NCBI GenBank assembly: GCA_017654855.1
Contig: CM030336.1
Coordinates: 2,108,001-2,172,000, forward strand
From: Podospora anserina
Lineage: Eukaryota
DNA length: 64,000 bases
Direction: 5' to 3'
Below the pieces are notes generated by a model. The model searched no databases, was not told the DNA's origin, and saw only the letters and a program-made list of their open reading frames with translations. Within the stretch, counting starts at the first letter, position 1. Each line of letters begins with the position of its first letter. This document shows, one piece after another, positions 2,795 through 64,000 of this stretch. A program made the translations under genes and the position numbers.

Positions 2795-4854
2795 ATGTGG
2801 TTCCTGCGCAACGACGTCGTCGCAGCCGTGCTGCTCTTGGCGCCCTTTTCGTTGGCTGCCCCTACCGAGTATAGCAAGAAGCTGCCTCAGTTCGCTACCA
2901 TCATCAACCGTCGCCAGCTTAATGCCAACAACGCTACCTATGATTTCATCATCGCGGGTGGCGGTATTGCTGGCCTGACCCTTGCCGACCGCCTGACTGA
3001 GGACCCGAATGGTGTGTTGTCCGGACTTCTGTCTTGTCTCGCTATGGTCTTCTAACATCACCTTTACAGTCAAGGTCCTCGTCATTGAGGCTGGGCCCAT
3101 CGACCCCGGTCTTGAGGGTATCCAGGTGCCTGGCTCATTCTCGCCTTGGTATTATTTCTGGCCGAATCTCTTGACCGTCCCTCAGACAGCTCTGAACAAC
3201 AGAGTGATCGGGACAGTCAGCGGTCAGGTCCTTGGTGGTGGAAGTGCGATCAATGCCATGGTCTATGTGAGAGGTGACGCAGACGATTACGACGCCTGGG
3301 GTTTCATGCAGCGCCGTGGCAACTCTTCGTTTTACGGCAACTCTTCAGTGAGCTCGAGCATGAGCTGGAACACTATGCTGCCTTACTTCCTGAAGAGCGA
3401 GAACTTCACAGCACCCGATGCTGCTTATGCTCTGGAGGCCAACATCACCTGGAACCCCGCTGTTCGAGGTACCTCGGGCCCTCTCAAGTACACCTACCCT
3501 CCTTACTATTTCCCCGGCGCCGCCAACTGGTGGAATGCCGCGCAGTCGGTGGGACTTCCTCCCGTCGATGACCCTCTGTCTGGAATCAAGAATGGTAAGT
3601 CCGTTCAGCTGTTGTCTGGGTGCAAAACATACCCAAAAGTGAACTAACGCCGTCTTCCCAGGTATTTTCCCCATTCCGTCAGTACTCGATGCAGATACCA
3701 TGACCAGGAATTACGCCAAGATCAACCACCATGACAGGGTCAAGCAAGCCCGTCCTAACTACCACGTCCTCGCTGGCAACATTGTCGGCAAGGTCCTTTT
3801 CGATCCTAGCTGCAAGAAGGCCATCGGCGTGGAGTATCTCCCGACCAGCGGCGGGGCGGCCACCAACGTCTTTGCCTCCAAGGAAGTCATCCTTGCTGCC
3901 GGCGGCATCAACACCCCCAAGATCTTACAGCTTTCTGGCATCGGCCCCAAGAAGCTCCTCGACAAGTTCGGCATCAAGGTGGTCTCCAACCTGCCCGGTG
4001 TAGGCCAGAATCTCCAGGATCAGCCCACTCTCACCGTCCCTTACACCTTTACAAACAACCTCACCCCCAACTCGGGTTCTCTTATGGCCAATGCCACCTA
4101 CAATGCCGAGCAGCGTGCTCTTTACGATACTGAGCGCAAGGGTGCATACACCATCATCAGCTCTCTCTCCACCAACATCGGCCAACTCTCCCTCAAGCAG
4201 GCCACCTCCGACTACCAGGCCATCATCGCCGCCGCCCGCGCCGCCAACCCTGCCGACTCTCTGCCCGCTGATGTCGATGCTACCGTTCTTGCCGGCTACC
4301 GGGTCCAGCGCGAGGCCATCCTCAACCAGTTCGAGGGCGACGTCGGCGTTGGAAACCTTCACTGGGGCACCTCCGACAACGCGCTCGTCTACCATCTCAA
4401 GCCCCTCAGCCGCGGCACCGTCGAGATTGTCACCACCGACCCTCTCGTCAACCCCGCGATTGACCACCGCACAGCCACCGACCCTATCGACTTTGCCGTC
4501 TACACTGCCCTCTTCCGCAAGAACAGGGAGTTGTTTGCCGCCCCTGACATGCAGGTTCTCGGCCCTGCCGAGGGCGCCCCTTTTGCCGCTGCCACGACTA
4601 ACGAGGAGATCATCGAGGTCATGCGTGACCAGATCAACCCCTCGAATGCTCACCAGTGCTGCACTGCCGCTATGTTGCCCAAGTCCCTCGGCGGTGTTGT
4701 CAACAGCGAGCAGAAGGTTTACGGCGTCTCGCGTCTCAGAGTCGCTGACATTTCGTTCTGGCCCATGCAGACTGCTGGTTCTCCTCTGGGGACCATGTAT
4801 GCGGCCGGTGAGAGGCTTGCTGACATGATCAAGGCCGAGTATGGTCTTGCGTAA
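2795..4854 (+). CDS. Secreted GMC oxidoreductase (AA3-type, glucose-methanol-choline family), 3 exons
   Basis: Signal peptide MWFLRNDVVAAVLLLAPFSLAA; FAD motif YDFIIAGGGIAG; GQVLGGGSAINAMVY; LPGVGQNLQD; C-terminal AHQCCTAAM...LRVADISFWP. Introns near 3013-3069 and 3595-3661. Confidence 0.93.
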
Positions 4855-29527: not shown

Positions 29528-31416
29528 ATGGCTTCCACAAATTCGAATGCACCTCGTCATGAGGGGAGTGTGGCAGAGCAGACGGCCGGCCATGTTAACG
29601 GTGACTATGTGGTCAATGGCGTGCCACAGCTGCCCACCGCATTCCGCAACGGCAACGGCGGCCTTGGTGCTGGGGGTTTGCCCAGGAACATGTCGCTGAA
29701 CAGCTTCGCTCTGACAGAGTACAGCGCAAAGCCAACACCCCCCGCTGAAGACAAGAAAGATGAAGTGAAAAAGGTCGTGCCAGACGAGTATCTGCTACCG
29801 AATGGTAACCCAGATGTGAGTCACCCCGAGTCCATTCTTAGTTTTTGATCGAGAAGCTCATTATCCTACGTGTACAGTATCTTCGCCTTATCATCACCTC
29901 CTACCCGCGGGTGAGAGAGGTGTGCAAAGAAACTCCTTTGGTGCACGCTGTTGGCCTGAGCAACCGACTGGAGCGCAAGGTCCTGTTGAAGCGCGAGGAT
30001 GAGCAACCGGTATTCAGTTTCAAACTCAGAGGAGCGTACAACAAGATGGCTCATCTCGACGCTACCGAGTCCTGGAAGGGTGTCGTTTGTTGCAGCGCTG
30101 GCAATCATGCTCAGGGCGTTGCTTACTCGGCCCGCAGGTTGAAAATCCCAGCCACTATTGTGATGCCCAAGGGCACACCAAGCATCAAGCATCTCAATGT
30201 ATCGAGAATGGGCGGACACGTTGTTCTTCACGGCGCCGACTTTGACGAGGCCAAGGAGGAATGTGCTCGGCGGGAAAAGCAGGATGGCCTGATAAACATT
30301 CCCCCGTTCGACGACCCTTATGTTATTGCCGGCCAAGGAACTATCGGTATGGAGATTCTCTCACAAACAAACCTGCAGAAGCTTGATGCCATCTTCTGCT
30401 GCGTGGGTGGAGGCGGCCTGATCGCCGGCGTTGGTGTGTACGTCAAGCGTATTGCACCGCATGTCAAGATCATTGGCGTGGAAACGTACGACGCGGATGC
30501 GATGACTCAGTCTCTCGACAAGGGGGAGCGTGTGCTTCTCAAGGATGTTGGGTTGTTCGCCGATGGCGCCGCGGTCAAGATTACGGGCGAGGAAACGTTC
30601 CGTATTTGTCAGGAGGTTGTGGACGAAATGGTTCGGGTAACCACAGACGAGGCCTGTGCCGCTATCAAGGACATGTTTGAGGATACCAGGTCTATCATTG
30701 AACCAGCTGGTGCCCTGGCCATTGCCGGTCTGAAGAAGTGGGTGGCCGCCAATCCAACCCCGGATCCTACACGGTCTGTCGTGGCCATCACATCCGGCGC
30801 AAACATGAACTTTGACCGCTTGGGCTTTGTTGCAGCCCGTGCTACGTACGGCGAGGGAAGAGAGGCTTTACTTGCAGCCCGCATCCCAGAAAGCCCGGGA
30901 GCCTTCGCTGAACTCATCAACGCCGTCATGCCTCACTCTGTCACCGAGTTTAGCTATCGTTACGCCAGCCCAACTGAAGCAAATGTGCTCCTGGGTATCT
31001 CATTAACCGCCGTTGGTAGTGAACGCGCACAGCAACTGCAGTCGGTTATCAGCCGCATCAAGGAGTCCGGCACCATGGATATCACCGATCTGTCCAACGA
31101 CGAGTTAGCAAAGAGTCACATTCGATACATGGTTGGTGGCCGTTCTAGTGTGCCTAACGAGCGTCTGTACACATTCCGATTCCCAGAACGGCCCGGTGCT
31201 CTTGAGCGCTTCCTACAGACCTTGCGTGTCAAATACAACATCAGTCTGTTCCAGTACAGAAACCACGGTGGTGATATTGGGCAGGTTTTGACAGGCATCG
31301 TTTGCCCGAACGAGGAGATTGGCGAACTAGAAACATTCCTCAAGAAGATCGGCTATCCGTGGGAGGACTGCACAGATGCACCGGTGTTCAAGACATTCTT
31401 ACGGTCGGAGTCATAG
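29528..31416 (+). CDS. ILV1: Biosynthetic threonine dehydratase (threonine deaminase)
   Basis: PLP lysine motif VFSFKLRGAYN, SAGNHAQG, GGGGLIAG, SGANMNFDRL, regulatory FPERPGAL..NISLFQYRNHG; intron 29816-29877. Confidence 0.96.
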
Positions 31417-32338: not shown

Positions 32339-32755
32339 TGCGACGAACTCCTATCAAGAACCTCTGAAAGCGATACTAGTCGAAGGCTGCTTCTGAACAA
32401 TCCTAGTTTGGTACAGCTAAACAGTGTACAACAATGGCTCATCTCAATCACAATAATCAGGATACCAACCAATGTGACTTGTAATTGCATACTGCGGAAC
32501 TGTCTATCTAACACTGGCCAGTTCCTCCATATATATACAAGTGGATCACCTGGATCACCATGCCCAGCGTGATCTTGGATCACTTCCTCCAGCGTAGGCT
32601 CACTATGGATCACTCCTGTCACCTTAGGATCACTTGGATCACCTTGCCCCTAGCGCTCCGAAGCGCTCCGCTTCCTATTAGCTCCTTTAACGATTGGCTG
32701 GGTACATCCCGTGCCCCGCATACTGTGCAACTTGCCTGTTAGCTTAACGGTAACA
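32339..32755 (-). mobile_element. Solo LTR of gypsy family A (variant with GGATCAC repeats)
   Basis: TG...CA ends; shares the conserved half (tgYgacgaac...gaacctctgaaag...ccagttcctcc) with the other family A LTRs; flanks ACCAG/ACCGG (TSD with one mismatch). Confidence 0.85.
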
Positions 32756-34653: not shown

Positions 34654-35023
34654 TGTCACGGACCTGACATAAGTGGGGAGCGTGGGGCGCGACCTGTTTA
34701 ACCACTGGAATAGAAAAGTGGGGAAGTTAGATTATCACTAGCGCCAAGGGTGATAATCACGATTATTACTAGCCTTCAGTAAACGATAAGTAATAATCGA
34801 CACTATTACTCATAATAATAGTAATAAACAGGTCTATATATACGGAGGAACTGGCTAGTATAGATAAATAGTTCCGTAGTATGCAATTACAACTTATATT
34901 CACGGTATTTTATAATTATATTAAGACATTTTATTATACGCTGTTTAGCCGTACCGAACTAATTATCAAAAATAACCTTTAACTAATATCCCTTTCAAAG
35001 GTTCTATACAGGGGTTCGTTACA
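34654..35023 (+). repeat. 5' LTR of the full-length family A element
   Basis: Direct repeat of 41403-41772, differing mainly by C>T/G>A. Confidence 0.93.
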
Positions 35024-35274
35024 CGTTATATATTTACTTTAACTCTATTACGGATAAGTTAAAAGTATTAAGTTAATACTATAGCCGGAAATATTAATAA
35101 TATCTAGGTAGGGGTATTTACTTAACTTACTATCGACTAGCTTCTTACTTATATTTAAAAGCTTAAAAGTAAATTATATTTTTCCCACGATACCCTTACG
35201 TAAAAAAACGCTATACTCTACCAGGAGATCGGTACTTTACGTAGAAAAAGAGAGCGTACTAAGCTCGAGGTACC

Positions 35275-35616
35275 TGTGACGAACCTCTGTACAGAACCTC
35301 TGAAAGGGATACTGGTTGAAGGTAACTTCTGACAATTGGTTCGGTGCAGCTAAATAGTGCACAACAAGATGTCTCAATCACAACAGCTAAGATACCACGA
35401 TTGTGACTTGTATTGCATACTGCGGAACTGTCTATTTACACCAGCCAGTTCCTCCGTATACATAGACCAGTGGACCGTGGACCGTGAGCCCCGCCGCGGT
35501 CCCCGGTCCCCATCTTATTGGTCCGTTCCGTCCACTCGGACCGTGAGCCCCGCTCGATCGCTCGGTCCAGTCCTGATTGGTCCCTCGTGGCCCCACTGTC
35601 TTCCAGAACCGTGACA
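35275..35616 (-). mobile_element. Solo LTR of family A (GC-rich ggaccg/cggtcc variant) inserted antisense into gag
   Basis: TGTGAC...GTGACA ends, perfect TSD GTACC (35270-35274 / 35617-35621), little RIP. Confidence 0.93.
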
Positions 35617-36601
35617 GTACCCGATCGCTATAGAGGTATAAAAGGAGAGCTATGAGGATTCCTGATCTAACTTAAAGCTTACTTTCGGTACTACCCTTCT
35701 CGTTTCCCGGACGAGGAATCTAAGGTTATATATATTACGTCTAGGCTTAAAGATATAGTATTTATATAGTTCCAGACGATTTTAGGAAATTACTTTAATA
35801 ATGTGTATAATAAGAGGGGGGATATTATTAAGAAGTGTTTTAAATTATATAAAGGCTTTAAAAAGAAAATTAAAGAGGTATTTAAAAAATATAATAAGGG
35901 TAGGCGTACCTAAGAGTAACTAATTAACCTTAAGTAAACTCGATTTATTACCAATTATATTATAGTATTTAAAATATATATATTTTATAATATAATTAAA
36001 AATAAAGGATTAATATAATTATTTTATAACGGGCTTAAAAAAAAGTTAAAAATAAATTATATTAAATAGAATAACCGGAGATTATCGACAAGTATGTTAT
36101 AATAGTAATCCGTATTAACGATCGATAATATTAGCGCCGCAAGAAGCGTAAGGGCACACACGTATAAGGGCCCTACTACCCTAACGATAAAAGGAAAAGA
36201 CGGCTGTACGGGACTTACGTCTCGGAGACCACTTACGTAAAATCTATAGAGGTCGATACTATTTAATAATAAAGGCCGTAAAGCTAGGGTAAAAATAACC
36301 TTAAGTATTTTAATTACGGTAAAGTAAAGTATTTTAAAAAGGATTGTAGGGTACCTAAACGACTCGGATAGAAAAGGAAAATCGTAATAATTATTATATT
36401 AAAAGGACTAAGAATTATAGAGGTTGTAGCTATCGGATATTAGTAAAGTAAAGCGAAGAACCATTATTAAATATATATACGAGAGAATATTAAGTACGTA
36501 AAAGACGGAAAATAAGAGGAAGCTAGGCGGGTATAGTTAAAAAACTTTATATTATTAAATAATTCGGAGAAAGAAAACGCTTTTAAACGATATAATTACT
36601 T

Positions 36602-36637
36602 AAGAAACGACTTACGGCCCTTCGCGGGGGCCGGTAA
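36602..36637 (+). promoter_or_regulatory. Putative -1 ribosomal frameshift signal at the gag/pol junction
   Basis: AAGAAAC (probably RIP-altered GGGAAAC) followed by hairpin TTACGGCCC-TTCGC-GGGGGCCGGTAA; the same motif is in the minus copies at about 47605-47637 and 52141-52172. Confidence 0.6.
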
Positions 36638-39600
36638 TTTTTAATAAATTATAAATAGTATTTTCGGAAGTATTGGTATAAAATAAAAGTATAAGATAAC
36701 GATCCGATATTTATTAGCGAAATTACTATTATATAAAGAAAAGGTAAAAAAAAAATTTATTTTTAGATTATAATATATTAGAAAAATATTTAAATAATAG
36801 TATTAATAAATAGAAATATAGAAACGAACCTAATTTCGTTATAATTCGTATATTAAGTTAAAATAGTATAAAAGAAAAAAAATTTCGTTATATAAAATTT
36901 ATTTCCGACGTAAAAGGTTTATAAAGAAATATTATTTTTAAATATTATAGTCGAAAGAAAGATAATTTTAATTATCTTCGATATTATAAATATAGGACTC
37001 TCGAAGGATATAATCCTAGGGTAACTATAGTATAAAGACTATAATCTAGATATCGATTAGAGGGATAGTAACTACCTACGACCAAGAGAGCTTTAAAAGT
37101 ATTTAACCAACGATAGGAGATTAGGCGTATATATAGAGCAGAGTATAGGATAAGTACCTTCTATAGTACTACCGTAAGGAACCCAAAAAGTAATAGTATA
37201 CTCTATCGATATAGGTAGTAAAATTAAAGAAATAAAGTTAACGACGTTAATAAAAATATTAAAGGTTAATAAATATATTTACTATAATAATATAAAAAAA
37301 GTAAGAAAAAAGTAATATCGGTAGAATATCGAGGATACTTAACCTTTACGGCTAAGTATTTAGAGGGACTTCTAAAGCGAAGACCGTAGAATTACGAAAT
37401 TAAATTAAAAAAATTTAAATTATAATTATTTAAGGTCTACTATACTAACGATAAATAAAGTAAAAAACTATAGAAATATTTAAAAAAGATTTTAAAGAAA
37501 GGATATATTAAGAAGTTTATATCGCTAGTAAAATACTTTATATTCTTCGTACCGAAGAAAGATAGTAACTTATAATTATATATAAGTTACCGTTAATTAA
37601 ATAACGAAATAATAAAAAATAATTACCCGCTACCGTTAATATTTAAATTATAAAATTATTTAATTAAAGTATTATACTTTATACGCTTGAATATACCTAT
37701 CTAGTACGCCTATATATAGATTAAAGAAAGAAAGAAATAAAAAATAATGTTTTGTATATTTTATAATTATTTCGAGTATTTTATAATATTATTTAAGTTA
37801 ACTAATATACTCGCAATATTTTAATCTTTTATTAGTTATATAATTAAGAAATACCTTAATAAAATAATAATATATTATCTTAATAATATCTTTATCTACT
37901 TACGTACTCTAAAGAAATATAAGCGATACGTGCGAGAGATATTTAACGCGCTATACGGAGCCAGACTCTTAATAAATAAAAAGAAAAGCGAGTTTTACGT
38001 ATAAAAGATAGTATATTTAGGATATTTAATATTATTAAGTAAGGTTCGTATAGGACTTAAGAAAATTACGGTAATTAAGGACTAACCTACGCCGTATTTA
38101 TAAATATATATTAAAGAATTTTTAAGGTTTATAAATTTCTATCGGATATTTATTTATAAGTATATAGGAATTACGTAACTATTTAACTATTTAATTAAAA
38201 AAGACGCGGAATTCCGGTAAGGGTAAAAAGAGGAGTAAACCTTTTAGAAGCTAAAAGAAGTTATTTTAAAGGACCCGGTACTTAAATTATTAAACCCTAA
38301 TCGACTATTTAAGATTAAAGTAAATATATTAAATTATATAATCGGTAAATAATTAGGATAGTAAAATAACGACGAAAAGCTATACCTTATAACCTTCTTT
38401 TCGAAAAACTAAAAGAGGTACGTTAAAACTACCTAATTTATAATAAAGAACTACTCGTTATTATCGAAATATTTAAAGAATAAAAATTATATTTTTATAA
38501 TATTAATTATAAAATATAAGTTTATATAAACTATAAAAATCTATAATATTTTATTATTATAAAAGTCCTTAACGTATAATAAATATAATAATTAAAGTTT
38601 CTTTCGCAATTTAATTTCTAAATTAATTATAAAAAGGGTTCGGAAAACGCTAAAGCAAATGTATTTAACCGGCGAGCTAATTACTATAAAAATATATTAA
38701 AGGAATTACTATTACTATTTAAGAAAACGCTAAAAGGTATTTTGAAATATTTACTTTAGCCGTAAATAAAGTATTATATAGTATATTATAAGTAAATTAC
38801 TTTTAATAAATACTAAAGAAAGTTAAATAATAATATTATAGAGTAATATTAATAAAAAAAATTAAAGTTATAAAGTTTTTAAAAAAATAATTAAGGAAGA
38901 TTATAGTATAAAAATCGAACGTATATAAAGTTAGGCGATAGGATAATATTAATAATAAAAATTTATAAATAGAAACTCGGAAAATATATAGGTATTATAA
39001 AGACTATAGAAAAAATTAAATAGTACTTTAATAGGCCGAGGATTAAGGACGACGTTAAGGAAGCTATTTAATTATATTATATATATAAGAAAATAAAGGT
39101 TACGAGGTATAAGCCTTACGGATTTCTAAAATTACTATTAATAATAAAACGACTATAGAATTTAATTATAATAAACTTTATTATTAAATTATAAAAATTT
39201 AAAAATATAATAACTAACGTTAAATATAATAATATATTAACGGTAGTCGATAAGCTTATTAAATAAATATACTTTTACTTTATAAAAAAACTTAATCGGT
39301 AAAGTAATTAACGGATATAATACTACGGTATATTATATTAATATATATATAACTAAAGAAATTTATTATAGACGGCGATATTAAATTTATATCGAAGTTT
39401 TAAGGAGCGTTAATAATAAGGCTCGGGATAATAAATAAAGTATTTTCGGCGTACTACCTTTAAATAAACGGTTAAACGGAATAGCTTAATTAAATCGTAG
39501 AATAATATTTACGGAATTATATTAATTTCGAGTAAAATAATTAAATTAAATTATTACTAATAGGATAATTAATATATAATATATTATTAATAAAAACGAC

Positions 39601-40273
39601 TAAAGTTATACCGTTCTTTATAAATTGTAAATATAAAACAGACTTATAGTAGGGACTTAACGTTAAAGTACCTAAGGTTAAGGTTAAAGTAAATAAATTA
39701 TATATATTTTATAGTAAACTTAAGTAAAAACTAAAGTTTATAAGAGAAAGGATACGGGAATATTATAATATTAAAAGGCTCGAGGGACCTCGCTTTAAAG
39801 AGGGAAATATAATATTTTTTTCTATATATAATATACGTACTAAAAGACCTAATAAGAAGCTAAATTATAGGAGAGTAAGCTTATTTAAACTTAAAAGGAA
39901 GATCTTAAAAATAATATTCGAATTAAAGCTACCTAATACGATACGTTTAAAGTTATATACTTTTTACATTTTACTTTTAAAAACTATATTACTAATAAAT
40001 AAAACTAATTTTTAAGTAATAATAAAAGATAAAAAAGAAAAATATAATATAAAAAAATATTAGATTTACGGTTTAATAAAGGTTAATTAAAGTATTTAAT
40101 TAATTAATTAAAATATCCGGCTATAAATAATTTATAGGAATTAAAGGTAAACCTTAATTACTTAAATAAATAAAAAGTATTTTACTAATAATATTTAAAC
40201 CGATTAAAACTTAAGTAAATAAAAGATTAATATTTAGGTTTATAAATAGTATTTATAAATTTAAATACCGAAG

Positions 40274-40343
40274 CACCTTAATAGGAATCGAACCTACGTA
40301 TTTAATATAATAATCGATGTACTACATATTATACTACGAGGTT
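40274..40343 (-). pseudogene. tRNA-like cassette, copy 1 (RIP-mutated), inside the retrotransposon
   Basis: Minus strand: aacctcg-tagtataatatgtagtac-...-gtaggttcgattcctat-taaggtg; A-box-like sequence and intact B box GGTTCGATTCC; isotype not readable. Confidence 0.6.
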
Positions 40344-40479
40344 AATAAGTATAACGAAATCTAAGCATAATTAATACTATACGCCTCCACTATTATAAAA
40401 AAGGTCGAAAAAGCATTACTAGCGAGTAAAATAATATTTAAATTTAAAAAAATCTATCGGGTTTTTCTAAATTTAGAAG

Positions 40480-40549
40480 AACCTCGATAGGAATCGAACC
40501 TATACTTTTAATATAGTGGCCGGCGTACTACATACTATACTATAAGGTG
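40480..40549 (-). pseudogene. tRNA-like cassette, copy 2 (RIP-mutated), inside the retrotransposon
   Basis: Minus strand: cacctta-tagtatagtatgtagtac-gccggccactatattaa-aagt-ataggttcgattcctat-cgaggtt; tandem duplicate of copy 1 with about 206-bp spacing. Confidence 0.62.
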
Positions 40550-40649
40550 AAAAGGTATAAGGAAACCCAGTTATAAGTAGTACTATGCGTCCTAACTACT
40601 TTAGGAAGTAAAAAGCGCGCTATCGGTAATACTTTACGGAATTAAAAAA

Positions 40650-41280
40650 GAAAGACCGGCCGTACTAAGATCCAAAGGAAGGTCGGAAGGTTAATCGAAG
40701 TTTAAAGAAGGATCCAGGAAAGAAAAGTTAGAAGGACCCGAGGGAGTAAGATTAGAAGGATAAGCGTTATTAAACGACGGGATAGCCTGCGCGGCCTACC
40801 TAACTTCTTCCTATTCGATACGTTCGGTAACTTCTAACTCGTCGAGAAAGAAGAGGCCGCGGGTAACTATAACGGCTCCTTTATCTATAAGAAATTCGCG
40901 TTAATAACGGTCCTGCGATAAATAAATTAAAGCTTTAAAAACTTTCTATTAAAACTCAACTAAAAAAGTTTTAATAGGTTTTTCTTTTCCTAAAGATAAC
41001 GTTACTCTCGTATAATCTTATTTATTAAAGGAAATTAGTAAAAAAGAAGAGAAAGGTAACGAGAGACTTACGTAATAAAATAGGGATACCGGTACCGTTA
41101 TATAAACGTTTACGACGTACGTAAGCTTTATAACGCTTTACTTTATTTATTATACGGTAGGTTAACCCTTACGAGTTATATTACGAGTAAAATATAACGA
41201 GGAAGCTGTTTTTAATAATATTCTAAGTAAATTTAGTATGGTACTATATAAACGACGATAGAGGTTTTACTATAGATATA
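40650..41280 (-). pseudogene. Antisense accessory gene of the gypsy element: Cys6 Zn-cluster-like N-terminus, intron, coiled coil (boundaries approximate)
   Basis: De-RIP reading MPCSWC.SQGLTCRMM.KVKRCEACVRRGRSCDGTGIP; GTAAGT donor at about 41071; later frame ...QREFL.DKGAVMV.RGL..LDELE..ER.EQEE. Confidence 0.65.
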
Positions 41281-41402
41281 ACGTTAGTTAAACTATTAAA
41301 GGATAAGAAGGAAGACCTACGAAGAAAAGAAGGAAGACGAGAAGAGCGTATACAATCGATAAGACTAGGCTAACGGGACGTTAATCTGGAGGAGGGGCAT
41401 TA

Positions 41403-41772
41403 TGTCACAGACCTAACATAAGTGGGGAGCGCGGGGCGCGACCCGTCCAACCACTAAAACGGAAAAGTAAGGAAGTTAGATTATTATTAACGCTAAGGGT
41501 AATAATTACGATTATCACCAGCCTTCGGTAAACGACGAATAATAATCGACATTATTACTCGTAGTAATAGTGATAAACAGGTCTATATATACGGAGGAAC
41601 TGGCTAGTATAGATAGATAGTTCCGTAGTATGCAATCACAGCTTGTATTCACGGTATCTTGTGTTTACATTGAGACATTTTGTTATGCGCTGTTTAGCCG
41701 CACCGAACTAATTGTCAGAAGTAACCTTCAACCAGTATCCCTTTCAGAGGTTCTGTACAGGGGTTCGTCACA
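41403..41772 (+). repeat. 3' LTR of the full-length family A element
   Basis: TGTCAC...TCGTCACA, preceded by the PPT and followed by TSD GAGGG. Confidence 0.93.
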
Positions 41773-44150: not shown

Positions 44151-47100
44151 ACCCCGGGCTTTTCTTTTTAACCAATCCGGGTACTACCGGTAAAACTCCT
44201 TTAACCTGTTAGGGTAATTAATATACATTACAGAATTTTACGAATCATTATAAGTGAATACTTGAAATTATTAATTAAATACTTTAATTAGCTTTCATTA
44301 ATATATAAATTTGGTATTTTCTTTATATTATAGTTCTCTTTTTGGTTTTTCGCAATTCTTTCAAAAATTAGCCTTACTTATTCATAATACAGATTTTAAA
44401 GGTAAAATATAAATATATATTACCGTAAACGTAGTATATTAAGTAACTTTAACTCGTACGGTATTTGCGATATCATCTTTTTAATCTTCAATTACCTTAC
44501 TCTTTTATAATAGAATTCTTTATTTAGTTTTTCAATACACAAATTATATATAAAAAAGAATAATATATTTCTCCTTTTAAAGTAAAGTCCTTCGGGTCTT
44601 TCAAAGTTATGATACTTACATATTTTTTATATAAGGTCCAATTCTCCTTTAAATTTATTACAAAGTAAATATAATTTGATTACTTTAACTATGATTTTAG
44701 AAACCTTTACTTTGAGTCCTTAACGTAAATTTACCTCTTACTTAGAATTCGCGAAAAAAGATATAATTTATTATTTTAAATGATAATATACTATATAGTT
44801 ACGCTATAAGTAGTAATTTAACCAAATCATTTTACCTGGAATTAGTATAAATTTATGAATATCATTATATGATTTAAGTAAGCCGTTCCGTTTATTCGTC
44901 GGTTTCAAAGAAATAGGTTAATGATATCTTACTCTTTATTTTTGGCCTCTTTACTAATACTCATTAATTGAAATATAAACGTAGTATTGCAATTTTTAAT
45001 AAGCTTTCTCGGTTACATATATAATAATATAATACACCGTGATATTATGTTTACTAATCATTACGCTATTTACGTTTCTTTATACAATAAAAAGTATATC
45101 CATTTACGAGGCTTATAAATGATAAGTAATTTATTATTATATTTAGCGCCGGTTACTATATCCCGACACTTTAATAATTTGATGATAAAGTTTACCATAC
45201 CTAAATTTTATAACCATCTAATTATTTATAATAACTTTAAAGATTCTTAAAACTTATCTTTTATAATGTTAATTTTCTCGTATTTATTGTATAATTAAAT
45301 AACTTCTCTAATATTTTGTAATTTTTGATTAATTATAATACTCGTTAATTTTCTTTATAGTTTAGTAATACTTATATACTTTCCGAAGTTTAGTTCGTAA
45401 ACTTCTTTATTAATACCGTCCTAACACTTAACTTGATATAAACCTGATTTCATATTAATATTATTCCCGACTATCCTTTAAAATACTTACGGCTTTAGAA
45501 TTTTTAAACTTATTATTATTTTGTAGTATTTTTTTCAATTTTCCATTACGATTTCTTAAACAGAATTTATTTATAATACATAATATAATATTTTATTCAT
45601 AATTAAAGTAAATATTTAAACTACCTTCTGGCGTTTTTTTAAAATAGTAATAGTAACTTTATAACTATATTTTTATAATAATCGGCTTACTTGTTAAATA
45701 TATTTACGTTAATACTTTGCGATCCTTTTTTATATTTAATTTAAAAGTTATATTTTAATAGACAGTTTAAATATTTGATTTAGTGAGTATTAAAGACTTT
45801 CATAATCGTAAAGTACTGTAGATTTTAATAGTCCGTATAGACCTGTACTTCGTAATTAGTATTATTAAGATATAACATTTATTCTTTAAATACTTCGATA
45901 ATAATAAATAGTTTTTTATGATAAATTAAGTAATTTTAACGTATTTGGTTTTATTTCTTTAAAAGAAAGTTACAAAATACAATTTCCCATTCTCGTCCCG
46001 CTAATTTAATTATCTTCCGATTATATAGTTTAATATATCCGCAACGACTTTGAATAGTCAAGTAAAGTTTAATAATCTTAATGCCGGATCCTTTAACACA
46101 GTTTCTTTTAAATTCCAGAATATTTACTTTTTTTATTTTTTGCTTTTGCCGCATTTCTTTTTTACATAATTAAACCAACGCGTAATATTTACGTACCTCC
46201 GGATAAATGTCCAATAAAAAGTTTTCCGAAGAAAAGTTTAATGTATATTTATGATTATAACGTAGATTAGTCTTCAATTACTATAATTTTCTTAAAGGTG
46301 TTAGAAACTGTATTCAATAATATTAAACATTTTAAATATACTAATTTCTATATATGAAGTTCGGATTTTATTTATTTATTAAAAGTGCGGCTTTCTATTG
46401 CGCGTTAAGTGTTTTTTGTACATACTTTTTACATTCTTTTAATGTATATAAAGAAATAGAAATATTATTAGAATGATGTATTATTGTTTAATTAAATAAT
46501 GTTACGAGATACTCGATTAAGTGTAAGGTATACAAAGCGCTATTCATTACTTATTTCTTTCCTTGATTCATATATAAGCGTACCTAACTAGTAAATATAA
46601 ATTATTACGTTTTGACTAATTAATTCCGTAGCCTAAACATTTGATGATACTAAATAATTGTTTTGTTACCGTTTAATTGTTTAACTAACGGTAATATATA
46701 TATATATTTGTAAGCCTCAATCTTCTTTAATCGAAAGAAAAAAAGGTAGTTGATTAGTAATATTGATTCTAAAGAAAAATTGTAAATTTTCGTTTAAGTA
46801 CTTTTATAAATCTATAGTTTATTTATCCTTAGTATAATGAACCCTAAATAACCGTGATTTAGCTTCTTCTTTTAACCTAATTCTATAGTTTTACGGTTCT
46901 TATTTTAAAAACCCCTTTAAATATTTAACCGTTAAATACCTCCGATATTATACCGGTAGTGCTTTGTTCTTAGTTATATTATTAGAGTAAATAAATCCAT
47001 TTACTTCCGATATGATTACTAATATTATTAACATCCTTCTCAATTTCACTATTTATATCGGTAAAATGCATTATTATTTTTTATGTTTTTTACGTTGATA

Positions 47101-49988: not shown

Positions 49989-52222
49989 TAATATACTATA
50001 TAATACTTTATTTACAAGTAAAATAAATATTTTAAAAATACTTCTAATATTTCCTTAAATAATAATGGTAACTTTCTAGGTATATCTTTATAGTAGTCGG
50101 TTCGCCGGCTATATACGTCTGCCCTAACGCTCTTCAAACCCTTTTATAGTTAATTTAAAAAATTAAGTTCCGAAAGAAACTTTAATTACCGCGTTTATCG
50201 TACGTTAAGGACCTTCGTAATAATAAAATGTCGTAGATTCTTACAGTCCATATAGACTTATATGTTATAATTAATAATATGAACATATAACCTTTACCTT
50301 TTAAATACTTTAATATCAACGCATAACTCGTTATCGTAAATTAAATAACTTTAACGCACCTCCTTTAGCTTTTTCGAAAAGAAAGCTATTAAGTATAACT
50401 TTCTATCGTCGTGTCGCTAACTCAATTATTTATCGATTATACAATTTAATATATCAACTTTAACGTCGAATAATTATTTAGGGTTTAGTAATTTAAAAAC
50501 CGTGTCCTTTAAAATAACTTCTTTTAATTCTTCAACGGCCTACTTTTTTTCTTACCTTTACCGGAACTTTCCGTTTTGTTTAATTAAATAATTACATAGC
50601 CGCGTAATCTTTATATATTTCCGGATAATAATCTAATAGAAATTTCAAAATTTCAAAATTTTCTTAATATATATTCATAATTACGGTATAGGTTAATCCT
50701 TAATTACTATGATTTTCCTAAGTTTTATCCGAAGTTTATTTCATAATATTAAATATTCTAAACATACTATTTTCTACCTTTAAACCCCGTTTTTTTAAAA
50801 AAATTAAAAGTCCGGCTTTATATAGTACGTCGACTATCTCTCGTACACATCGCTTATACTTCTCTAACATACATAAGTAAATAAAAATATTATTGAAATA
50901 ATATATTATTATTTTATTAAAATATTTCCGGATTATATTAATTAACGAAAGATTAAAACGTCGCGGACGTATTAGTTAACCTACATAGTATTATAAAATA
51001 TTCAAAAGAATTATGAGGTATATAAAAGGTTATTTTTAATTTATCCCTTTTTTTAATCCGTATAAAAATATACTTAATAGGTATATTTAAGCCTATGAAA
51101 TATTATGCTTCAATTCATTAAATCCGTACAATAAATATTAATAGTAGTAAATAATTATCTTTTACCGTTTCGTTATTCAATTAGTAATAATCTATATATA
51201 GTTATAAATTACCGTCTTTTCTTAATACAAAAAATATAAGGTATTTTACCAATAATATTATCTCTTTAATATATCCTTTCTTTAGATTTTCGTTTAAACA
51301 CTTGTGTAATTCTTTACTTTATTTATCGTTAGTATTATAAACCTTAAATAACCGTAGCTTAACTCCTTCTCTTAGCTTAATTTTATAGTGTTACGGGCCC
51401 CGCTTTAAAAATCCCTTTAAATATTTAACCGTAAAGGCTAGGTATCCTCGATATTTTGCCGGTACTATCTTTTTCTTTACGTTTTTATAGTATATATATT
51501 TATTAATTTCTGATATTTTTATTAACGTCGTTAAATTTTTTTCTTCAATCTTACCGCCTATATCGATAAAAGATACTATTATTTTTTAAGCTCCTTACGG
51601 TAATACTGTAAAAGGTATTTGCCCTATACTTTACTCTATATATAGTTCTAATATGCTACTGTTAGTTAGATACTTTTAAAGTTCTTTTAGTCGTAAATAA
51701 TGACTATCCCTTTAATCGATATTTAAACTATATTTTTTATATTATAATTACTTGAAGACTGTATTTTTCGAGGGTCCTATGTTTATAATATTAAATAGAG
51801 TTAAAATATTTTTTTTGGACTATAATATCTAAAATTAGTAATTTTGATACACTTTTTACGTCGGAAACAGTTTTTATATTATATTTTATTCCTCTTTTTT
51901 CTCTATAATATTCTAACTTACTATATAAAATATAGCGAAATTAAGTTCGTTTCCGTACTCCTATTTCTTAATATTACCGCTTAAACATTTTTTTAATGCG
52001 CTACAACCTAAAGGTATCTATTTTTCTTACCCTTTTTTTATAGTAGCGACCTCGCTAATAAATATCGAGTCGTTATCCTATACCTTTACTTTACGCCGAT
52101 ACTTTCGATAATATTTTTTATAGTCTGTTAAAGGTTATGAGCCCCCGCGAAGGGCTGTAAGTCGTTTTTTAAATGGTTATGTCGTTAAAAGTATCCTCCT
52201 ATTCCGGGTTATTTAATAACGC

Positions 52223-62129: not shown

Positions 62130-64000
62130 ATTATATACTATCTAACTGCACCGGAATAAATTATTTAGAAGCGCCTTCAATTATAATTTCTTTCAGAGGT
62201 TTTAAATAGGGGTTTATTGTATATTATATATTTATTTTAACATTGCTATAGATGAATTAAAAGCCAGTTTTCTATTATTATTATTAATTACGAAAATATT
62301 TAAATAAGTAATGTTCTTACCATACTGTTGATTAAGGGATAACCTACCACTATGGAGATTAGTATTTTCGATTAGCTTTTCGGACGTATTAAGAAGCTTA
62401 AAGAAAAACCTTGATAAACTAAAGATTAGATCCTCGCAGTTAACGGAGAAAAACTAAATATTAAAGTTCCTGGTAAGTATTATCGGAAATATTAGTATAA
62501 AGTAAAAATATGAAATAACGATCCGGTATTTATTGGTAGGGTCGCTTTAATCTAAAGAGAAAGTAGAAGAGATAAATATTCTTAAGTTATAATATATTAA
62601 AAATATATTTAAACGGTAGAATCAATAAATAAAAGATCAAAAATTAATTAATTTCGGTATAGTTAGTATATTAAGCTAAAATACTCTATAGAAAACAACT
62701 TTGTAGTATAAGGACTATTTCTAACCTAAAAAGTATATAAACAATATTATTTTTAAATACTAGAATCGACAAAAATATAATTTTAAATATATTTGACATT
62801 ATAAGTATAGGACCCTTAAAGGATATAATCCTATGGGAATTATAGTATAAAGACTATAATTTCATAATTGATTAGAGAAATAGTAATCATTTACAATAAA
62901 AAAAGCTTTAAAAGTATTTAATTAACGGTGAAAGAGTAAAAATACATACAAAGTAAAGTATAAGATAAGTACCCTCTATAGTATTATTATAAGAAGTTTA
63001 AAACGTAATAACGTTAATAAAAATATCGGAGGTTAACAAATATATTTATTATAATGACGTAAAGAAAGGCGAGAAAAAAGCGGTACCGGTGGAATATCGA
63101 AAGTATCTAGCCTTTACGACTAAGTATTTAAAGGGATTTCTAAAGTAGGAACTAGTAAACTATAATTTTAAATTAAAAAAAGAGGTAAATTACGGCTATT
63201 TAAAGTATGCTATATTAACGATAAGTAAAGTAAAGAGTTATTGAATTTTTCAGCGAGAATTTAAGAAAAGGATATATAAAGGAGTTTATACTATCAGTAA
63301 GATACCCCGTATTTCTATACTGAAAAGAAATAGTAATTTAAGATTATCTTTAGATTACCGTTAGTTAAATAATAAAACGGTTAAGAATAAGTACCCGTTA
63401 TCGTTAATAGCCAGGCTATAGAGTTATTTAATTAGGATATAATACTTCAAATACTTAAATCTATCTATTAAATACGCTCATATATAGATTCAGGGAGGAA
63501 ATAAAAAAAATAACTTTTCGTATACTCTATAATTATTTCGAATATTTCATAATACCATTCGGGTTACGCAATATACCAATAACGCTTTAATCTCTGATTA
63601 TTTATATAATCCGGAAATACTTTGAGAAAATATTACTATATTATTTTAACGATATTCATATTTATTTACGTACTTTAAAGGAATATAAGTAGTACGTATA
63701 AAAACTACTCGATACCTTATACGGAACCGGACTTTTAATTAATGAAGAAAACCAAATTTTATATATAAAAGATAGTATACTTAGGATATTTAATAGTATT
63801 AAGGAAAATTCGAAAAGAATTTGAGAAGATTACGGTTATTAAAGATTAGCTTATACTATAATTATAAATATACGTTAAAAATTTTAAAATCTTTAAATTT
63901 TTATCAAATATTTGTTCGGGGTACGTAAAGATTATGTAGTTTTCATTTATTCAATTAACAAAGACGTAGAGTTCCTGTAAAAGTGGGAGGAAAAATATGC
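62130..64000 (+). mobile_element. Fragments of further family A-like gypsy copies: LTR 3' half (about 62130-62221), gag-like piece, PR-RT region running off the window
   Basis: 62800-64000 aligns by eye with about 36990-38230 (e.g. ggatataatcct..., gtaccggtggaatatcga, tacccgttatcgttaat). Confidence 0.75.

Follow-up and report, generated by a model that had tools for sequence, protein, structure and literature searches.

Probable relic of a conserved antisense accessory gene in a Ty3/gypsy chromovirus of Podospora anserina

Introduction

Do the long terminal repeat (LTR) retrotransposons of fungi encode regulators of their own? The question is raised by a stretch of 64,000 nucleotides of Podospora anserina DNA (assembly GCA_017654855.1, contig CM030336.1, positions 2,108,001 to 2,172,000 of the forward strand), hereafter the window, in which positions are counted from the first letter. 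It contains a Ty3/gypsy chromovirus worn by repeat-induced point mutation (RIP), and a preliminary description of the DNA had proposed that, on the strand opposite pol and next to the 3′ LTR, this element bears an intron-containing gene for a protein with a six-Cys cluster and a coiled coil. Retroviruses carry their own transcriptional regulators, whereas LTR retrotransposons are usually thought to depend on host factors. Our analysis indicates that the feature is, very probably, the RIP-inactivated relic of a conserved antisense accessory gene (aORF) of a Sordariomycete Ty3/gypsy chromovirus lineage. What the protein did is a separate matter, on which our proposals are considerably more tentative.

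Results

A RIP-destroyed two-exon gene opposite pol

The minus strand from 41279 to 40634 holds a RIP-destroyed copy of a two-exon gene, situated between the end of the pol chromodomain (~40185) and the 3′ LTR (41403), where the preliminary description had placed it (Table 1). Exon 1, which encodes the six-Cys domain and, ahead of it, a basic N-terminal helix, aligns without gaps to three un-mutated proteins (P0007, P0008 and P0011); from 41189, its frame now reads YS*YNS*GLTYRIINKVKRYKAYVRRKRLY, with asterisks for stops. Exon 2 begins in frame 41418-3k (NKIIRE*RYL*E) and, past a 1-nt deletion near 40990, continues in frame 41419-3k; the other-frame stretch downstream of the intron reads ..RGLFFLDELEVTERIE*EEVR... 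The GTAAGT donor (41071-41066) and the branch-like sequence (TACTAAT, 41040-41034) that had been pointed out are both present, and the homologous acceptor is mutated to TAA (41027-41025). The intron had, however, been drawn too long: it extends over the 47 nt from 41071 to 41025 only, and the stretch that follows, up to the Arg/Glu-rich helix, is coding, with 41024-40895 corresponding by homology to the coiled coil. Two other gene models were tried and dropped. A 55-nt intron with an acceptor AG at 41018-41017 gave way to the homologous site at 41027-25 after DNA alignment, and an upstream exon beginning MPLL, followed by a second intron, was abandoned, given that most homologues begin MS/MP-x-EK and that MPLL arises from the polypurine tract (PPT) read on the opposite strand. 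The window copy is certainly dead, a non-functional relic inactivated by RIP.

The gene was recovered through its homologues. A phmmer search with the exon-2 read-through, stops written as X, against 1.84 billion representative proteins returned P0004 (105 aa; E 5.5e-10), the other three matches being repeat noise; identity between P0004 and window exon 2 is 56% over 91 residues (58-65% in the phmmer match). Through P0004 we reached P0007 (247 aa; 75% identical to P0004), and a search with the latter gave 12 proteins at E <= 0.01 including P0007 itself, that is, 11 relatives. When P0007, P0008 and P0011 were aligned to the window by tblastn, the matches were collinear and fell in two frames, at 41333/41243-41070 and at 40987-40670; in them, all six Tyr codons pair with Cys in each of the three proteins, and the in-frame stops of the window copy pair with Trp, Gln or Arg of the un-mutated homologues. 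These pairings are RIP-type changes (TGY to TAY, CAR to TAR, TGG to TAR), and the earlier reading of the Tyr codons as former Cys codons is therefore right, except that eight residues rather than seven separate the third and fourth Cys. A hidden Markov model (HMM) of the family, run against all six frames of the window, matched 41267-41079 (E 2.2e-6) and 40984-40709 (E 1.2e-9) and nothing else. Neither Pfam, on the raw read-throughs of either strand, nor a word-index search among longer proteins with the RIP-mutated exon 1 (P0001) gave a match.

The Tyr pattern by itself carries no such weight. In the 32.5 kb from 31500 to 64000, searched in six frames, the relaxed pattern [YC]x2[YC]x6[YC]x5-12[YC]x2[YC]x6-8[YC] occurs three times, compared to a mean of 0.5 in Markov-1 simulations, 38% of which (200 in all) contained at least one match; Tyr accounts for ~8% of codons in every frame of this AT-rich block. 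The six-Tyr spacing alone is within chance, and the two further matches (43681+ and 42188+) are not matched by the family HMM. Homology, not spacing, confirms the observation as real at the level of sequence comparison. No gene with the canonical Cys pattern was found in the window, and blastn found no second copy of 40150-41420 elsewhere in it.

The species has further copies of this stretch: contigs from three DNA runs span 40096-41227 with 82-85% similarity, one example showing 91 differences in 588 nt and another 83 in 458 nt, so that the stretch is part of a repeated element there. Among the 40 of 1211 differences listed for these contigs, none falls in the six Tyr codons. One RNA run contained only a poly(A)-ended contig of 54 nt, at 40024-40057, which has no bearing on aORF expression.

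The same gene in intact relatives

Scanning metagenomes with P0007 identified four loci (L001-L004), the last of which ends inside the gene; the same scan with P0004 gave no locus. The most informative is L002 (7535 nt), an intact, un-mutated element with an open pol of 1081 aa (RVT_1, RNase H, integrase, SH3_Tf2-1 and Chromo domains) and a gag with a zinc knuckle (zf-CCHC). The ends of this contig repeat the same gag sequence, which marks it as a circularly permuted assembly in which the intact element has one LTR. Its aORF lies antisense at 2906-3552, with the start codon 118 nt inward of the LTR edge and the final 125 nt overlapping the 3′ end of pol tail to tail (3425-3552). L001 and L003 have the same antisense layout beside pol and the PPT, and in them, too, the aORF overlaps the end of pol. 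Three of the retrieved loci extend beyond the end of the gene, and all three keep the antisense placement, for which the preliminary description had suggested that homologues be checked; the window is collinear with the relatives' DNA from the LTR edge and PPT onward. The opposite-strand position between pol and the 3′ LTR that defines the aORF-3R class is found in the window and in L001, L002 and L003. Many copies and coding-type conservation, which also mark that class, are seen for the gene as well, although not every element copy need carry it.

The two-exon structure is likewise shared. In L001 and L002, the coding parts lie in different frames, 50 nt apart, and are separated by a GTGAGT or GTGTGT donor, a CTRAC branch and YAG; the equivalent in L003 is 51 nt long, the donors across the three loci being GTGTGT/GTGAGT/GTAGGT. 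Removal of the intron yields open reading frames (ORFs) of 198 aa (L002) and 190 aa (L001), compared to 83 and 82 aa unspliced, and the resulting junction, GVPxS[SA] joined to LxRI, matches intron-free homologues without a gap. In three proteins (P0012, P0024 and P0025, from Beauveria bassiana and metagenome contigs of 5-13 kb), an uninterrupted ORF runs across the intron position on long contigs, and the intron therefore seems to be absent from the DNA. An antisense intron stays in the sense genomic RNA and hence is copied faithfully at each retrotransposition; the aORF intron survives because it is antisense to the genomic RNA, an explanation that had been offered before and is sound as general knowledge. 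Together, the homologues and the three loci bear out the proposal of an antisense, intron-containing gene for a six-Cys, coiled-coil protein.

Between L001 and L002, dN/dS is 0.41/1.74 in exon 1 and 0.37/1.10 in exon 2 (~0.24 and 0.33), with dS near saturation; as judged by these substitution rates, the aORF is shown to be conserved under purifying selection. The proteins of L001-L003 are 37-75% identical. The family is found in annotated Sordariomycete genomes, and its named members come from Chaetomium globosum (CHGG_04275), Canariomyces notabilis, Corynascus similis, Thermothelomyces thermophilus and Beauveria bassiana; in T. thermophilus, one identical protein is annotated on 7 contigs. 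The Ascomycota clusters that correspond to it in the ESM Atlas have 62-122 members (whole protein, 0.92-0.95; domain, <=0.81) and provide no Pfam lead for either the protein or the domain.

Predicted layout of the encoded protein

The family consensus of ~195 aa comprises a basic N-terminal helix, the six-Cys domain, a helix of ~65 residues that is likely a coiled coil, and an acidic, hydrophobic tail. The Cys region (..VMPCxxCxSxxLxCKMxExxxRCxECVRRGRSCDGSGVPxSS) is followed by a long heptad-like stretch, and the tail contains the signatures ..RGLSxLDELExxERxES.. and DVVDWxAVF. The pattern of Zn(II)2Cys6 domains is C-x2-C-x6-C-x5-12-C-x2-C-x6-8-C; the homologues have C-x2-C-x6-C-x8-C-x2-C-x6-C, with five invariant Cys columns and a Tyr at the first position in P0017, and the window has its six Tyr codons in this spacing. 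Cys, Arg and Gly columns are invariant among proteins that are otherwise 45-67% identical. In AlphaFold2 models, residues 10-140 have a predicted local distance difference test score (pLDDT) of ~90; a short helix starts from each of the two CxxC, and a long helix occupies residues 67-132 (pLDDT above 90). A homodimer prediction with two copies of residues 8-150 scored 0.30 against a mark of 0.32.

The Pfam domain Zn_clus (PF00172), for which the gathering cut-off is 21 bits, aligns in register (profile positions 2-31 or 2-32) with five of the 10 proteins scanned, at 8.0-18.1 bits; in P0011 (8.4 bits), the sixth protein with a match, the alignment is out of register. P0012 scores highest (18.1 bits, E 0.0028), followed by 14.6, 13.3, 12.2, 8.4 and 8.0, and a separate scan of the family matched five of 13 members. 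The alignments in register speak for the proposed likeness to Zn(II)2Cys6 proteins; all of the scores stay below the cut-off. UniRef labels CHGG_04275 as a Zn(2)-C6 fungal-type domain protein, and of the 11 matches that Foldseek listed for the domain model, 10 are Zn2Cys6 proteins (Pho7, Put3, Gal4, Cep3, Lac9, Ppr1 and Hap1), all weak (E 0.99-4.9); the fold search with the full-length model returned long helices only. The six-Cys domain may thus be described as Zn2Cys6-like and is a probable divergent member of that family.

The host element and its setting

GC-rich genes occupy the window up to ~31400, beyond which degraded retrotransposons make up an AT-rich block (GC 0.21-0.34). An open frame at 29842-31416 (+), threonine dehydratase-like by eye, is the final intact gene ahead of this RIP-mutated block. 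Within the block, the chromovirus is complete on the plus strand (34654-41772), flanked on both sides by the target-site duplication GAGGG; the LTR pair, this duplication and the pol order of reverse transcriptase (RT), RNase H, integrase and chromodomain identify it as a Ty3/gypsy chromovirus. Its two LTRs agree at 320 of 370 positions and differ at the other 50, in 49 cases by a transition. Pfam recognizes SH3_Tf2-1, the SH3-like domain of integrase, at 39728-40210. The gap of ~1.2 kb between pol and PPT (40186-41387), where the aORF relic lies, is unusually long for a chromovirus.

Table 1. Features of the chromovirus and its antisense gene, in window coordinates
Feature	Positions	Strand	Details
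5′ LTR	34654-35023	+	370 bp; GAGGG precedes
pol, RIP-degraded (RT, RNase H, integrase, SH3-like, chromodomain)	37315-40185	+	tblastn with L002 pol, 31-40% identity, collinear pieces
Two ~200-nt direct repeats, each with an antisense tRNA-like unit (40273-40343, 40479-40549)	40228-40630	-	Rfam, repeat alignment
aORF exon 2, coiled coil and acidic tail	40634-41024	-	8 premature stops; TAA end at 40636-40634
Intron relic, 47 nt	41025-41071	-	DNA alignment with L001, L002 and L003 introns (50-51 nt)
aORF exon 1	41072-41279	-	start codon now ATA (41279-41277); 4 premature stops
Motif of six former Cys codons, all now Tyr (TGY to TAY)	41100-41189	-	spacing x2, x6, x8, x2, x6
PPT, GGAGGAGGGG (41388-41397) plus CATTA	41388-41402	+	kept in L001-L003
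3′ LTR	41403-41772	+	370 bp; GAGGG after; U3 adjoins aORF 5′ end

Read in antisense, the PPT gives ATGCCCCTCCTC (MPLL), which is conserved in the window, L001 (334-346), L002 (2791-2802) and L003 (2303-2314). This conservation is more likely due to the PPT than to coding, and MPLL, which had been taken as the start of P0007, would be an upstream ATG in the antisense leader; the PPT region, in antisense, is probably the 5′ leader of the aORF transcript. The antisense promoter would be expected either within the 3′ LTR or in the 120 nt that lead up to the aORF start codon. Upstream of the TATA box, U3 in both L001 and L002 has many GGTGAT/ATCACC or GGATCAC/GTGATCC repeats, together with CCAAT boxes; the window LTRs contain RIP-worn versions of these repeats. 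Repeats with a GTGAT(C)/(G)ATCAC core and CCAAT boxes precede the TATATATAC box at 2540-2690 in L002, 130-245 in L001 and 41500-41600 in the window. These U3 repeats are possible factor-binding modules and candidate targets of the aORF protein.

The tRNA-like units share the strand of the antisense gene and lie between its stop and the end of pol. They are RIP-worn, score 26.6 and 25.4 bits with the Rfam tRNA model, compared to a gathering score of 29, and contain no tRNA detectable by ARAGORN in either unit. Some same-species copies of the stretch are without one of the units (joints 40177>40476 and 40161>40466). The units had been tentatively grouped with the antisense gene as one system; L001-L003 lack both units, and the repeats, which fill the space from the end of pol to the aORF stop, are specific to the window's lineage.

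Inverted copies of the 3′ half of the LTR (positions ~175-370) are present at 35275-35471 (-) and 32339-32537 (-), with 85% and 76% identity. These half-copies are much less mutated and are joined to other GC-rich, repeat-bearing sequence (GGACCG/CGGTCC runs); one of them lies inside the element, directly past the 5′ LTR, where a solo LTR from a sister family whose U3 differs may have become nested. Further degraded gypsy pol remnants occupy 44974-46219 (-), 50024-51537 (-) and 62476-64000 (+), the last being from the family of the studied element (73-77% identical); no antisense-gene copy was detectable by tblastn or the family HMM in these remnants inside the window.

Discussion

What would such a protein do? 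We propose, tentatively and at a level that falls a little short of probable, that it is a dimeric, zinc-dependent, sequence-specific DNA-binding regulator that tunes the transcription of its own element through motifs in U3. The preliminary description had suggested a trans-activator or anti-silencing factor acting on U3 modules, which is a plausible role. The antisense mRNA would start in the U3 of the 3′ LTR or in the ~120-nt gap between the LTR and the start codon, crossing the PPT. The product would be nuclear, dimeric, zinc-dependent and DNA-binding, with an acidic activating tail, and its likeliest targets would be the repeated motifs of the element's own U3, through which the transcription of the element would be adjusted. 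Several observations weigh against this proposal. Not a single protein reaches the Zn_clus cut-off (best 18.1 against 21 bits), the domain criterion of family membership, and four of the 10 scanned (P0007, P0008, P0019 and exon 1 of L001) have no Zn_clus match at all. A profile search of PDB sequences produced coiled-coil noise only. The R-x-x-K-x-K run usual in Gal4-type fingers is missing from the helix past the second Cys, and the GTGAT(C) motifs of U3 differ from the CGG half-sites typical of the Zn2Cys6 family. Finally, the window copy is non-functional, and fewer contigs cover the aORF stretch than pol in the same runs, such that many element copies may be without this stretch or have it in a more diverged form.

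Some of these points are shared by an alternative that is somewhat unlikely and yet merits serious attention, namely, that the six-Cys domain is not a DNA-binding module but binds RNA or protein, as a chaperone, a nuclear-import or integration cofactor or an antagonist of a host silencing factor, with the coiled coil serving assembly. The sub-threshold Zn_clus scores, the lack of any significant structural match and the missing basic residues of the canonical recognition helix would all be compatible with such a role. So would the precedent of plant antisense aORFs of unknown function, some of which are known only as nuclear (PMC7264820). However, the Cys spacing, the in-register Pfam alignments and the predominance of Zn2Cys6 proteins among the weak Foldseek matches listed point to a Gal4-type fold, and the order of Cys cluster, linker, long helix and acidic tail is that of a small Gal4-type activator.

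An improbable explanation is that the antisense RNA matters and the protein is incidental, double-stranded RNA formed with the genomic RNA feeding or tuning RNA silencing. The 3′ end of the gene overlaps that of pol in L001-L003, and its leader overlaps the PPT; the idea has also been raised for plant antisense aORFs (PMC7264820). Against a role of the RNA alone stand dN/dS of 0.24-0.33, the invariant Cys, Arg and Gly columns in otherwise divergent proteins, and the conservation of an intron whose removal restores the frame. Roles of the protein and of the antisense RNA could coexist.

It is most improbable that the gene has no regular part in the element and that this one copy acquired a piece of a host Zn2Cys6 gene, along with tRNA genes, in a one-off transduction. 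Although the tRNA-like units are lineage-specific and gene capture by LTR elements is known (PMC7264820), this scenario is refuted by the recurrence of the same gene in the same place in L001-L003, with proteins that are 37-75% identical, by the several diverged copies of the stretch in the same species and by the identical proteins on 7 T. thermophilus contigs. An ancient capture of the N-terminus of a host Zn2Cys6 protein is possible as the origin of the family. The likelihood that Tyr codons, GTAAGT and an open acidic frame are mere accidents of an AT-rich, RIP-mutated spacer is next to nil: the pattern counts given above, the six fairly open frames in 40650-40900 and the Pfam blank on raw read-throughs would fit chance, which is refuted by gapless homology to un-mutated proteins and loci and by a family HMM that matches this locus only (E 2.2e-6 and 1.2e-9).

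How novel is the aORF? The brtn gene reportedly was described by Zhao et al. (2011, Virology 417:248) in Boty-like Ty3/gypsy retrotransposons of Botrytis cinerea and Sclerotinia. According to the relevant passages of four papers (PMC7264820, PMC8365987, PMC4227169, PMC5987419), brtn is an additional antisense gene of Boty located between pol and the 3′ LTR, and a Monilinia transcript matched both a truncated Pol and BRTN (PMC5987419). Judged by description only, in these passages, both cases concern a fungal Ty3/gypsy chromodomain element with an extra antisense gene between pol and the 3′ LTR, and the Monilinia transcript fits the overlapping arrangement seen with the aORF. The differences are that the hosts of brtn are Leotiomycetes, compared to Sordariomycetes for the named aORF members, and that no Cys cluster is mentioned for BRTN in the passages of those four papers. 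Antisense ORFs between pol and the 3′ LTR are also known from plants, with Grande gene23, RIRE2, Retand and PvRetro13 among the examples (reviewed in PMC7264820). As presented there, they resemble the aORF in position and orientation, many copies, coding-type conservation and a suspected regulatory role, and for Grande an antisense promoter of its own has been shown (PMC7264820). They differ in that there is no sequence relation and, apart from an SMC-like region in PvRetro13, no recognised DNA-binding domain in that account; the plant elements named belong mostly to non-chromovirus lineages, unlike the window element.

Comparison with Gal4-type Zn(II)2Cys6 proteins, of which Gal4, Ppr1, Put3, Hap1 and Pho7 have solved structures, reveals six Cys in a permitted spacing, a short helix from each CxxC, a long helix past a short linker and restriction to fungi, along with the weak Foldseek matches. 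By contrast, the aORF protein scores below the Pfam cut-off, has only ~195 aa without a middle homology region, is encoded by a multicopy retrotransposon and does not conserve the basic motif of the recognition helix. A looser parallel is HBZ of human T-lymphotropic virus 1 (HTLV-1), an antisense, spliced basic leucine zipper (bZIP) protein transcribed from the 3′ LTR. The likeness is one of design, namely, an antisense spliced gene near the 3′ LTR that combines a dimerising helix with a nucleic-acid-binding module; the two are not homologous, HBZ, a product of a vertebrate retrovirus, has a bZIP rather than a Cys cluster, and for the aORF, transcription from the LTR is only inferred. The antisense promoter of the HTLV 3′ LTR is mentioned in PMC7264820. 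A full-text literature search found no description of a Cys-cluster protein encoded by an LTR retrotransposon. In short, the Cys-cluster, coiled-coil product may be new, and the antisense extra ORF between pol and the 3′ LTR, in fungi including brtn, is already known. To speak of an undescribed system, as the preliminary description did, was an overstatement, all the more so as the window gene is a RIP-killed relic rather than a working gene.

A fuller scenario, unlikely when taken as a whole, is that this chromovirus lineage encodes a minimal Gal4-like factor that joins a Zn2Cys6-like finger to a coiled coil for dimerisation and an acidic tail for activation. Produced from a spliced antisense mRNA that starts at the 3′ LTR, the factor would bind the GTGAT(C)/GATCAC modules of its own U3 and thereby control transcription or escape silencing. 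Finger and U3 repeats would co-evolve, and in the lineage of the window element, the tRNA-like units, downstream on the aORF strand, would act on the antisense transcript as 3′-end processing or RNA polymerase III modules; the whole would be a fungal counterpart of the Tax/HBZ-type regulators of retroviruses.

If the proposed regulatory role is correct, the aORF would be a clear case of a retrotransposon that brings its own regulator, and it would provide a testable function for the long-puzzling antisense extra ORFs between pol and the 3′ LTR. More generally, the case shows that treating the Tyr codons of RIP-mutated DNA as one-time Cys codons can bring genuine genes to light. The members of this family, currently annotated as 'hypothetical protein' and once as Zn(2)-C6, should be recognised as transposon genes, not as host transcription factors.

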